From the NCBI GenBank assembly GCA_951406725.2, contig OX597825.1, positions 45,942,001 through 46,006,000 on the forward strand: a DNA stretch of 64,000 nucleotides. Reading direction: 5' to 3'. The number at the start of each line of letters is the position of its first letter. The first letter of the stretch is position 1. The translations under genes and the position numbers were made by a program. This DNA is from Octopus vulgaris. Taxonomy: Eukaryota. Shown piece after piece: positions 17,251 through 47,848 of this stretch. The notes beneath the pieces are model-generated. The model searched no databases, was not told the origin of the DNA, and saw only the letters and a list, made by a program, of their open reading frames with translations.

Positions 17251-17399
17251 ATGAATAAACTACAAGGCAAAAAGAAGGATAAGAAGGATGAAGAAGAAGA
17301 AGAAAGAGAAATTCCAATAGAGACAATGCATACTATTGTCAAACAACATAAGGATCAACTTGCACTTCAAGTCATGAAAGTCTCAGAGTCAATCAAACT
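17251..17399 (+). CDS. G-protein gamma subunit, coding exon 1 (MNKLQGKKKDKKDEEEEEREIPIETMHTIVKQHKDQLALQVMKVSESIK+CT)
   Basis: ATG at 17251, 49 codons plus 2 nt, then donor GTAAGT at 17400. The KVSESIK segment matches the G-gamma 'KVS' helix. Splices in frame to 47734. Confidence 0.92.
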
Positions 17400-19249
17400 G
17401 TAAGTTGTTATGGTAGTTATTAGTAAAAAAAGTGTTTTTTAACATGTATTTAATGTGTTTGTAAGTATTAATGTACTTGCATACACGTATGCATGCATAT
17501 ATATATGTGTGCACACATATATATATATATTTGGTATCGAGCAAATGGCTAAGGTCGTTAAAGAATTTCCTTTGTCTTCTCCTTTTCATTGAATATATAT
17601 ATATATATATATATATATATATATATATATATACATTTATACATACATACATACATACATACATACATACATACATACATACATACATACATACATATAT
17701 ATATATATATATATGTATATATATATATATATTCAACTTACGATGAAAGTAAACAAAGTTTGCTTTAGAAGCATTGAGAAATAATTTATTCTCAAATGCA
17801 TGATAATGTTAATACAATTGCATGAACAGGACAAACTATCTATATATTGCAGAAAAATTCATTGCCAGCTAGCCATGAGATGTGAACTCACATCCCTGTG
17901 ATTACACATCAAGTGCTTTACCTTTAAGCTAAACTGGCCAGTAACGAATTGTTCTGCAATTTTAGGATTTATAAATCTAGCTTTATAAGATGCTAACACT
18001 AAATTCAACTTACAATGAAAGTATACAAAGTTTGCTTTAAAGGTGTTGAGATGTATTGAAAGATACCAAATTTTTCTGCAATGTATAGATAGTTTATCCT
18101 GTTCATGTTATTGTATTAACATTATCATGTGTTTGAGAATAAATTATTTCTGTATCTTTTATGTATGTATATATATATATATAAAACCATTGTCATCATT
18201 TTAACACCCACTTTTCCATGCTTCTATGGTTGAGAATGAGTTTATTGAGGCAGATTTTTATGGTTGGACGTTGCCAACCTTCCTGTTGCCAACTTACACC
18301 TGTTCCCAAGGCAAGGTAATATTTCCCCATGGCCAGATATATTTTCTCAGAATATTGGAAATGAATGACACTACTTGTATGACAGTGACATTCATTTACA
18401 GCTATCATGTGATGTCAAGACAAGATGACAGACACACACACACATACTTATGTATATATTGTATGTACACACACACACAAAATTATGAAGACATGAAAAT
18501 ACATAAGTATATACTTTACAGCATTTTTTGTTTGATAGTATGATCTAAATAGAACAAACATTTTGACTTAAGCTTTTGGATTATTAGACCAACTGTATTG
18601 ATAAATATGTAGCTGCCTTAAAGTTATCAATTATGCATACACACATACTTACATTTATTTATTCATCTATTCCTTTATTTACATATCCAGCATTGTGTTG
18701 TGTCTTTACTGTAAAATAAATTACTTTTAGCTGAAATTCTAATTGGAAATATTATGGAAACAATATATATAGTTGATGATGATTGCACCATCTTTATAGA
18801 AAATTGCCACCCCTCTGAGCTGCCACATTGTCAATGGCATTTCTGACATTCTATCAATAATCCTGCTGCAGATCTGCATGGTTTGAAGTAGTTAAAACTT
18901 CCACTGGATTGATTGGATCACTTTGTGATATATGATCCTTGTGAATCACCATATATCACTTCAAACCTGAAATTTACTTGCAAGCCCTTTCACACACTAC
19001 ACACATCTATTTAAGATGGTTGACATACCCAGCCTTGTTAAGGAATACACAGCTACACTCTTCATATCTCTGACACTTTATGTTCTCATTGAAGTCCTAA
19101 TGACAGCTCCTCCTAAACCAGCACTCTAGGCTTTCATATTCAAGACAACGCTCTTCAAAAGTTTTACAACATTCCTTTATACTCTTTCTCCACTCATTTC
19201 TTTCCAAAGTTAGTTGGTTCATGCTGAGGACGCTTTCCAGTAATGAACT

Positions 19250-21691
19250 AACAATCTTTTACAAACCAACAGTCAATATTTCCAACACACTAACTCGAAC
19301 TGTAAACTGTACCTGGACTTTGAAGACCAAGCTACTACCAATGTCAGACCTCTACTATTTATATGTAGTGGTTCTGTCTATTCTTGTCAGAGGGTGATGT
19401 AGTCTCACCACAACATCACCCCTTTTGAAATTTTGAGTTCCGAAGGAATGAAGAAATTTTATCTATTATTATTATTTTTTGATGTCTGTTTTGCTTGGGC
19501 TTTATTTCAAGGTATTCAGTCAGCTTCCGTTTTCTCATGCTGGTTCTATGGGGCTCCGTTACTTTCAGTGCTGAGACATCGAATACATAAAAAAATACTT
19601 CCATAGGAATTTCTCTCTGTTCTTTGGTATGTCTCTTCTTTAGTTGATTTATGGGTCTCTTATGTTCCCAGTGTGGTCATTTTTAGTTACAAGGCCATCC
19701 TCCCGGTCTTCTTTACCATTTCTGTAGGTTTTAAAAAGCACTTTATCTCTACTTCAAAATGTTTCGTTACATCTTATGTATTTCCTTTCTTATATTTCCT
19801 TATGGCCAGATATATTTTCTCAGAATATTGGAAATGAATGACACTACTTGTATGACAGTGACACTCATTTACAACTATCATGCGACGTCAAGACAAGATG
19901 ACAGACATACACACTTAGAGTAATCCACTTAGAGAAATCCACCTTTTAAATGATTCCACTCTTTTCCAGTCTGTCATTTACAATTTCAATTGCTGCGAAG
20001 GGTACTTTTCTGCATTTTTACTTACTCTCACTCTTTTTACATAGACCTAAAACCTCTGATTGTACTTGAAGAAACATCTTTTTCAATTTTCTCTTCAATT
20101 CCCCAGACAATTTATTTTTAATAGGACAACCATTTATGTTTTTGCAGTAGAGATTTATGGAGAGGTGCCATAAGTCAAATAACTCCAACCAATCTGTACC
20201 AAACAAATTGATTGTATTCTCCACAATGAATATTTGTGCTTTGCATGTTTCTCCTCAAAATGTGACGTCTGTACACATTTCGCCCATGAAATGTAATTTA
20301 TCGCCCATCATGCCACACAATTTTCACTGTTTCTTGATTTTCCTCCATGTATCCGCATTTATGATTGAAATATCACTAGCTGTATTCAACTGCAGCTTGA
20401 TATGTACGACATTTTTTTCACATGTACGAATTTTCTTGTTTTTGTGTCACATTCACTTTCTGCCTTAGAACTTTTTTCATTCAACCCTCATAATTTTGTC
20501 CTGCAACGTGAGCTTTTGTGACCAAGTTTTTGACAACTATAGCATCTTTGGTTTTTAAATGGACACTCTTTTTTGAAGTGTAGGCCTCCACATCCATAAC
20601 ATGGATTGGGGCCTGGCACTTTTTTTTTATTGTACTTTCTGGGTCAACACATCTGTATTTTTGCAGAACCTTTCACTTGAATTTTTTCACATCGTGCTTC
20701 AGGTTTATCATTGTTTGACATTTTTCTGCAATGGTCTGTAGGGTTAGGTCTTGGTTTTCTGTCTTTGGTTGCTGTAAGGCCTTGTATAAAGATAAGGGAT
20801 TTAAAAATATCTTGAGTGAGTTCCTGAAGTTTAAAGTTTTCCCACACACAGTTGGCTACTCCGGCTTATGTAATAAAGTCATCATCATAATTTTTTGTGA
20901 AGTTCCAATGCTCCCTTCGAGCATTGAATAATGAACTTTTGTCACAAAAGATCTTTGATAGTAATTCAATAGTTTCTTGAAAACACATCTCATTTGACTT
21001 TTTGGACAATATAAAGTTACAGTAGTATTTATGATTGGCTGGAGCTATCTTGCATAGTAATAACCTCACTTTTTTCTCATCTGACCATGACATGCAATCT
21101 TGGTTAAAAATTTCCTCGTACCTTGTATTGTATGCAGGAAACCTAATACCCTCTTTTGGATTATGAGTGAATTCAGAAATCGAGTTCACCACACTGTCTG
21201 GCATTAATCAATTTACCGAATTCACAGACTTCCTTGATTGTAACTCAATTAACTGTTGTAATATTTGCTTCTGCAACTCTTGTAATTGTTCCTATTGCTT
21301 CTCTTGAAGCTGTATTACTGCAGCTAATAGGTTCTCCATAATTTAACAATTTGTCAAATAAAATACGTGAGCTTCGAAAAATCCTCATCGCCAGATGTTA
21401 TATCCTTACACCTCCAATATTATAGTAAGGTTGATATTGTCGACAATACATAAAGAATATTCTTTAGCAGTGTTATAACAATACAAAATAGAAACAGTGG
21501 CAGAAACAAACATGTAGCAAAACCAACAATCTTTTACAAACCAACAATCAATATTTCCGACACACTAACTTGAACTGGACCTGGACTTCAAAGACCAAAC
21601 TAAGAAACTGCCAACTATGTTAGACTGCTACTATTTATATGTAGTGGTCCTGTCCATTCTTGTCAAAGGGTGTCATACTCTCACCACAACA
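19250..21691 (-). mobile_element. Ty3/gypsy LTR retrotransposon, internally deleted
   Basis: 5' LTR 21396-21691 (TG...CA), PBS TGGCGATGAGGAT at 21381-21393, gag-like ORF 20866-21204, protease-like LQLNTASDISI, integrase-tail-like HKRPINQLKKR, PPT AAAAGGGGTGA, partial 3' LTR ~19250-19415. Confidence 0.85.
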
Positions 21692-47370: not shown

Positions 47371-47733
47371 TATATACAGATCCTTCTTACATTTCACATT
47401 CTCCCTCCATTATTTTGATAGGTGACCTGTCCTTAAGTAAATATTAACCTACACAATGTACAGCTATCTTAAACTTCATTTACAACTTTCCAATATATTT
47501 CTTTGAACTTGGTTTTGCATGAAATGTCAGAAGTTACCTTTACTTGTTGCACATCATATTTTTTTTCATTTTTTTAGTCAACAGAGACAGACTGCTATCA
47601 GTCTATTTTAAGGACCATGTGGTGATAACTATTTTTATTATAAACAATCTTTCTTTAATATTAAATATTGTAGGACAGCTTTGTGCCAGAGTCTTAAAAC
47701 TTCATTAGTTAATAATTATTTTTAATTTTTCAG

Positions 47734-47848
47734 GCACATTACAGCTATTGAAGAAAAGATGCCTACAGATCACATGCTTAAGCCGCAAAAACCAAATCCG
47801 TGGGTAGAAGACCAATCAAAAGGTGGTGGGGGATGTCTCTTAGTGTAA
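47734..47848 (+). CDS. G-protein gamma subunit, coding exon 2 ((L)HITAIEEKMPTDHMLKPQKPNPWVEDQSKGGGGCLLV*)
   Basis: Acceptor ttttaatttttcag ends at 47733; CT+G completes Leu. NPW motif, CAAX box CLLV, TAA at 47846-47848. Spliced product is 87 aa. Confidence 0.93.

Follow-up and report, generated by a model that had tools for sequence, protein, structure and literature searches.

A window of 64,000 nucleotides (nt) of the Octopus vulgaris genome (contig OX597825.1 of assembly GCA_951406725.2, positions 45,942,001 to 46,006,000) carries on its forward strand a two-exon gene for a G-protein gamma subunit (G-gamma) of 87 amino acids (aa). This gene and that of the squid visual G-gamma are likely orthologues, and the octopus product likely belongs to the Gq trimer of rhabdomeric photoreceptors; we give this reading a probability of about 0.82. 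All positions below without a contig name are those of the window.

Structure and Splicing of the Gene

The two coding exons, located at 17251-17399 (exon A) and 47734-47848 (exon B), join into 264 nt that encode 87 residues and a stop, with the C-terminus GGGGCLLV. Exon A begins with the ATG at 17251, which is preceded by in-frame stops, and its 149 coding bases (codons 1-49 and two bases of Leu50) cover a charged N-terminal extension and the first helix. It is followed by the donor GTAAGT at 17400. Exon B is entered through a pyrimidine-rich acceptor whose AG ends at 47733, and its 115 coding bases run from the rest of Leu50 through DHML, NPW, a glycine linker and the CaaX box CLLV to the TAA at 47848. 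The GT-AG intron between them (17400-47733) measures 30,334 nt and interrupts Leu50 in phase 2.

The exon B stretch was present in 20 of the 24 sequencing runs listed (11 studies), which we take to be RNA, none being recorded as such. The junction was examined on the assembled contigs of four runs, one each from four studies. In all four the contig coverage started exactly at 47734, and the overhang before this position was the final 30 nt of exon A (17370-17399). The joining of the exons was also scanned for chance fits. Among 1315 YAG sites downstream of exon A only three yield a frame of 60-110 aa that ends in a CaaX box, two of them sharing one frame near 18,400, and the site at 47734 is the only one of the three with read support. 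Since the junction contigs are found in four of four runs and alternative sites are so scarce, the splice 17399/47734 is real and not a chance fit. The initial annotation had proposed from the sequence that both exons splice in phase into this protein, and the contigs spanning the junction, from runs whose tissues are not on record, bear it out; every motif that it quoted is present.

At the 3′ side, one run showed A-tails after 48162 and 48175, downstream of an AATAAA at 48143. The 3′ untranslated region (UTR) to these proximal sites occupies 47849-48175, with poly(A) 314 nt after the stop, and other contigs extend to 48643-48683 and past 48800. At position 48004, within this 3′ UTR, run X11 (organism code B) has T instead of G, probably a difference of allele or species. 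At the 5′ side, 175-306 nt of contig sequence precede the junction. With the most favourable acceptor ahead of the ATG (13 of 16 pyrimidines), exon A would measure 238 nt, with a probable 5′ UTR at 17162-17250, and an additional upstream noncoding exon is possible.

Identity of the Protein

The spliced protein was identical in 87 of 87 residues to P0006, deposited for O. sinensis as XP_029643337.1 and for O. vulgaris as CAI9731122.1 under the name G protein subunit gamma-like, a name in which the word "visual" is absent. The gene, which had been described as hidden, is so only with respect to the open reading frame (ORF) track of the window, the same protein being held by NCBI and UniRef. It was thus already annotated, and its protein type already known; no discovery is made here. 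None of six accession numbers was found in the literature searched.

As for the family, the identification as a G-gamma held. The Pfam G-gamma profile (PF00631) matched residues 26-85 with 34.0 bits against a cut-off of 27.1, and the profile search described below returned, among named proteins, cephalopod G-gammas only. Each exon alone fell below the Pfam cut-off (exon B reached 17.8 bits for G-gamma) and gave 0 matches against PDB sequences. The protein has the stand-alone form, with in-frame stops upstream, 87 aa and a stop after CLLV, and is not the GGL domain of an R7 RGS protein. In the same scan neither P0005 nor P0018 of squid had a Pfam match at E<=0.01, which places the charged G-gamma subfamily at the edge of the profile's reach. 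A PF00631 family search of the octopus genome G000 gave 8 matches and missed both genes of the charged type, so that this count is a lower bound. In a clustering atlas the protein lay near G-gamma clusters at 0.85-0.88, which we use as a lead only; the structure rows were uninformative.

Relatives and Probable Orthology with the Squid Visual Subunit

Intact orthologues were found in two other octopods. The 84-aa protein of O. bimaculoides (P0001) was identical in 84 of 84 aligned residues, and the Argonauta counterpart in 75 of 86. The three residues by which the O. vulgaris protein is longer (KKD) come from a 9-nt unit that is repeated exactly and in tandem at 17272-17289, a lineage-specific duplication that gives KKD twice. 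The nearest proteins outside octopods were those of squid: GBG of Loligo forbesii (54/86) and the "visual GTP-binding protein gamma subunit" of Doryteuthis pealeii (54/83). A similarity check on the spliced protein therefore gives what had been expected of it, a G-gamma domain and the squid visual G-gamma as best non-octopod match. In a profile search, 7 of 5097 candidates were retrieved at E<=0.01, of which 5 were named, all cephalopod G-gammas, and 2 were unnamed fragments; a search of 1.84 billion representative proteins returned 3, one of them P0010 of O. bimaculoides. Beyond cephalopods these searches showed no protein of the charged type, but with proteins this short they can reach only so far.

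The orthology has to be weighed against a second octopus gene with a charged N-terminus, located at G000:C23:9260607-9266506 (L009, L010, L017), with exons from 9260607 and 9266359. It encodes 89 aa ending in CLVL and is identical in 87 of 89 residues to its orthologue in O. bimaculoides, XP_014776860.1 (P0010). This C23 gene resembles the window gene in its acidic N-terminal run, in the phase-2 intron site after VSESIK and in its clade; it differs in its sequence (36/86 identity), its fewer basic residues, its intron of 5,600 nt and its CLVL box. No squid counterpart was seen in the protein searches, and it appeared in no paper found by the literature searches made.

In a tree of 13 proteins, with no vertebrate or fly sequences, the 8 rows of the charged type formed one branch (100/99), at a point flagged by the tool as a meeting of long branches. 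Within it three squid-type proteins joined the window gene and its orthologues from the two other octopods, at 86/77. An octopus-only duplication, in which both octopus types stand together against squid, was marginally rejected by the approximately unbiased test (p-AU 0.045). Two observations weigh on the other side. The branch that joins the window gene with squid has only this 86/77, and a grouping of squid with C23 was not rejected (p-AU 0.26). Moreover, the first helix of the window protein has diverged from squid, and that of C23 is closer to it (alignment A2), the pattern PEL-x-x-II-x-Q-[YF]-K being common to squid and C23.

These observations are what favours the alternative that the window gene is the paralogue, that C23 is the retinal subunit, and that the window gene works in other sensory cells, for instance chemoreceptors or the photoreceptors of skin or suckers; the 20 of 24 listed runs that hold exon B, in tissues not recorded, leave room for such a use. 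We consider it unlikely, because the window gene has the higher identity to L. forbesii (54/86 vs 43/86 for C23), the same type of N-terminus and the same CLLV as squid, and it falls with squid in the best tree. One-to-one orthology of the window gene with the squid visual G-gamma is thus likely as judged from these comparisons, short of proven because of the C23 paralogue and the modest support of the tree. The initial annotation, which inferred that the gene is this orthologue, had the nearest relative right and is supported with this qualification. Given that the first helix has diverged where C23 stays near squid, the role of the window gene may have shifted.

Sequence Marks of the Visual Type

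Among the first 20 residues of the window protein there are 7 basic (K/R) and 8 acidic (D/E) ones, compared with 5-7 and 7 in squid; canonical octopus paralogues have 1-4 acidic residues in this stretch. On these counts the charged, basic-then-acidic N-terminus stands as a true mark of the visual type. The other features quoted in the initial annotation (DHML, NPW, GGGG and CLLV) are also there, and the first three are not diagnostic, because squid has DHII, NAW in place of NPW and KKSGG in place of GGGG, and DHML also occurs in an unrelated paralogue on C8 (L003). NPW and GGGG are octopod features.

The position of the intron is likewise uninformative. The same codon and phase are found in the window gene, in the C23 gene and in a canonical two-exon G-gamma of 66 aa ending in CIIL (G000:C5:143212925-143236731; L007, L005), and because a canonical gene has it, the site is old and marks no subtype. 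A shift of the intron in G-gamma-13 found no confirmation in the literature searched, and we dropped the argument.

The letters MNKLQ stand at or near the start of both the window protein (17251-17265) and the gamma-1-like protein on C8 (L001). The charged type may have arisen by insertion into a gamma-1-like gene, or the likeness may be due to chance; the tree, with its long branches, had no resolution on this origin.

Expected Role in the Photoreceptor

G-beta and G-gamma form an obligate dimer, and the steps that follow up to the release of Gq are textbook knowledge for the family. Residues from about 23 to 58 would form a coiled coil with the first helix, at the N-terminus, of G-beta, and the segments with DHML and NPW would dock on its propeller. 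The cysteine of CLLV would be prenylated, clipped and methylated, anchoring G-beta-gamma in the membrane of the microvilli. In photoreceptors of the squid type, whose trimer is Gq, rhodopsin activated by light would then free G-alpha-q for phospholipase C, and the rhodopsin kinase, through its PH domain, would be recruited by the G-beta-gamma set free.

The predicted model has a helix at 23-58 (block predicted local distance difference test score, pLDDT, 76-91; mean of the model 66.7) and low values for residues 1-20 (50-56). Foldseek found no match and VIA-align only generic helices, none at Z >=5, which says nothing on the fold. For residues 1-20 we tentatively favour, as a guess more doubtful than not, a flexible tag that acts by its charges where the beta-gamma coiled coil lies farthest from the membrane, and that touches a photoreceptor partner. 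Recruitment of rhodopsin kinase is a plausible job for the released dimer: the octopus enzyme contains a PH domain, and G-beta-gamma reportedly activates it (PMC8465341).

Expression in octopus photoreceptors is deduced from squid. In the listed rows of the retina marker table for the bobtail squid E. berryi (PMC12240821, Table S4), with the columns taken as Seurat pct.1/pct.2, EB04406, the probable counterpart, carries the label Gbg and has neither a fly nor a human orthologue given; it is a marker of the photoreceptor clusters r1 (0.703/0.268), r2 (0.853/0.198), r2b (0.646/0.285) and Pigmented2 (0.454/0.282). The label is the name of the L. forbesii entry (GBG). The photoreceptors of this squid express Gq, phospholipase C and arrestin (PMC12240821). 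Three points weaken the deduction. EB04406 was matched by its label only and could be a gene of the C23 type; the top-100 markers of the L. vulgaris photoreceptor cluster, in the marker lists of PMC9839350 used here, include a G-beta and no G-gamma under the labels searched; and the tissues of the octopus runs that hold the gene are not on record.

It could also be supposed that the gene descends from the squid one and works in octopus as a general neuronal or broad G-gamma. The contigs reach a word depth of 100-587 in runs of unrecorded tissue, depth being no measure of expression, and 20-29% of the remaining retinal cells of E. berryi show Gbg as well, possibly as ambient RNA (PMC12240821, listed rows). 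We consider this very improbable, since no Gbg is among the optic-lobe marker rows listed in PMC12240821 and since L. vulgaris clusters 5, 7, 11 and 20 are marked, in the lists of PMC9839350, by a canonical gamma-1-like G-gamma, the class of C8 L001. Lastly, that the exons are unrelated fragments or a pseudogene that splice by chance, as the subthreshold Pfam scores of single exons and the missed locus in the family search of G000 could suggest, is practically dismissed: the junction contigs in four studies and the poly(A) tails refute it, and the orthologues in O. bimaculoides and Argonauta are intact.

Possible Nature of the Prenyl Group

The terminal Val was held to leave the choice between farnesyl and geranylgeranyl ambiguous, which was a fair statement; yeast reporter counts now lean to farnesyl. 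A Val at the last position fits the wider geranylgeranyltransferase I (GGTase-I) consensus Caa[L/F/I/M/V], as given in the part of PMC10942308 consulted. The data used here from PMC11304957, a screen of all 8000 CXXX motifs in yeast without farnesyltransferase (FTase), indicate that canonical geranylgeranylated motifs drop out, with scores at 37°C below 0.2. In that screen the scores at 37°C/42°C were 1.01/1.72 for CLLV, 0.038/0.041 for CLVL, 0.010/0.023 for CVLL and 0.99/0.056 for the unmodified CASQ (PMC11304957). In yeast with FTase, the frequency of CLLV dropped from 1.0e-4 in the naive library (79 reads) to 1.0e-5 at 25°C (15 reads), about tenfold, like CVIM with about sevenfold, these ratios being computed by us from the data rows taken from PMC10320760. 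The heat-map score of this study does not part CLLV (4.5) from CLVL (4.4) and CVLL (4.1), and the Ras-based score of CLLV is low (3.1 vs 19.4 for CVIM), an argument against strong farnesylation (PMC10320760). The sections of PMC11152559 at hand held nothing on CLLV, and the literature search found no paper on the prenyl group of a cephalopod.

With small counts, yeast enzymes and the Ydj1 reporter, CLLV looks, faintly, to be FTase-dependent in yeast with at most partial geranylgeranylation, and CLVL to be a full GGTase-I substrate. For the window protein the balance tips slightly to farnesyl.

Surroundings and Other G-Gamma Genes

By the pattern used, 4% of the intron is perfect microsatellite, and decayed pieces of mobile elements are also present. 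Twelve long ORFs, picked by eye, were scanned for domains. Of the 8 in the intron one passed the Pfam cut-off (DUF7083), and 3 of the 4 outside are reverse transcriptase pieces. These three are frames of long interspersed nuclear element (LINE) type found by the Pfam scan: 58707-61322 on the forward strand (872 aa, reverse transcriptase and endonuclease domain) and, on the reverse strand, 4646-5617 and 14334-14909 (reverse transcriptase). No host gene nested in the intron was seen in these scans, which were not exhaustive. An intron of 30 kb is not unusual here, since that of the C5 G-gamma measures 23.6 kb.

Four G-gamma-like frames (L001, L002, L003, L006) with domains not split by introns lie within about 1 Mb at G000:C8 33.70-34.70 Mb. 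L001 is the annotated gamma-1-like gene; the other three are fast-evolving. L003 ends in LCLK, without a cysteine four residues from the end, and L006 ends in CPLI. Taken from the first Met, L002 and L003 were absent from the protein collection by exact look-up; the L006 query was one residue short. A local expansion or retrocopies are possible. At G000:C3:103921163-103921264 (L004) there is a GGL-type exon without a CaaX box, which we take, by its motif, to be the GGL domain of an R7-family RGS and not a G-gamma.

Comparison with Known Systems

As a discovery the gene means little, considering that its protein is publicly annotated and the squid counterpart is labelled "visual" in UniRef/NCBI. 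As a label it is useful: to rebuild an all-cephalopod rhodopsin-Gq complex one needs the octopus visual G-gamma, and this is the probable one. What merits further attention is the C12/C23 pair formed by the window gene and its paralogue, whose CaaX boxes differ (CLLV vs CLVL). Transducin gamma and the G-gamma of the fly eye are farnesylated. It is conceivable, and we hold it doubtful, that the coleoid pair of old charged G-gammas splits the lipid anchor, the visual CLLV form being farnesylated and the C23 CLVL form being geranylgeranylated and at work in a different cell type that senses light or chemicals (e.g., r-opsin2 cells, or skin and sucker photoreceptors). If true, photoreceptors would have taken to the weaker farnesyl anchor independently for a third time, and a pair differing in prenyl group and cell type would bear on the convergence of cephalopod, fly and vertebrate phototransduction.

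Among solved structures the best match by sequence was G-gamma 13 (PDB 25st_G; E 0.011 with the single sequence, 1.6e-4 with profile A2), followed by transducin gamma (E 0.07), both weak. G-gamma 13 has QLA and NPWVE in common with the octopus protein; at 67 aa it lacks the charged extension, and so weak a match shows no orthology. The closer system is the squid visual G-gamma, whose novel N-terminus was reportedly described in 1992. The proteins of L. forbesii (P0018, 87 aa) and D. pealeii (AAQ88308.1/Q6TW98, P0005, 84 aa) have the same basic-then-acidic N-terminus and the same CLLV as the octopus protein; they differ from it in the first helix and by one residue before VMKVS.

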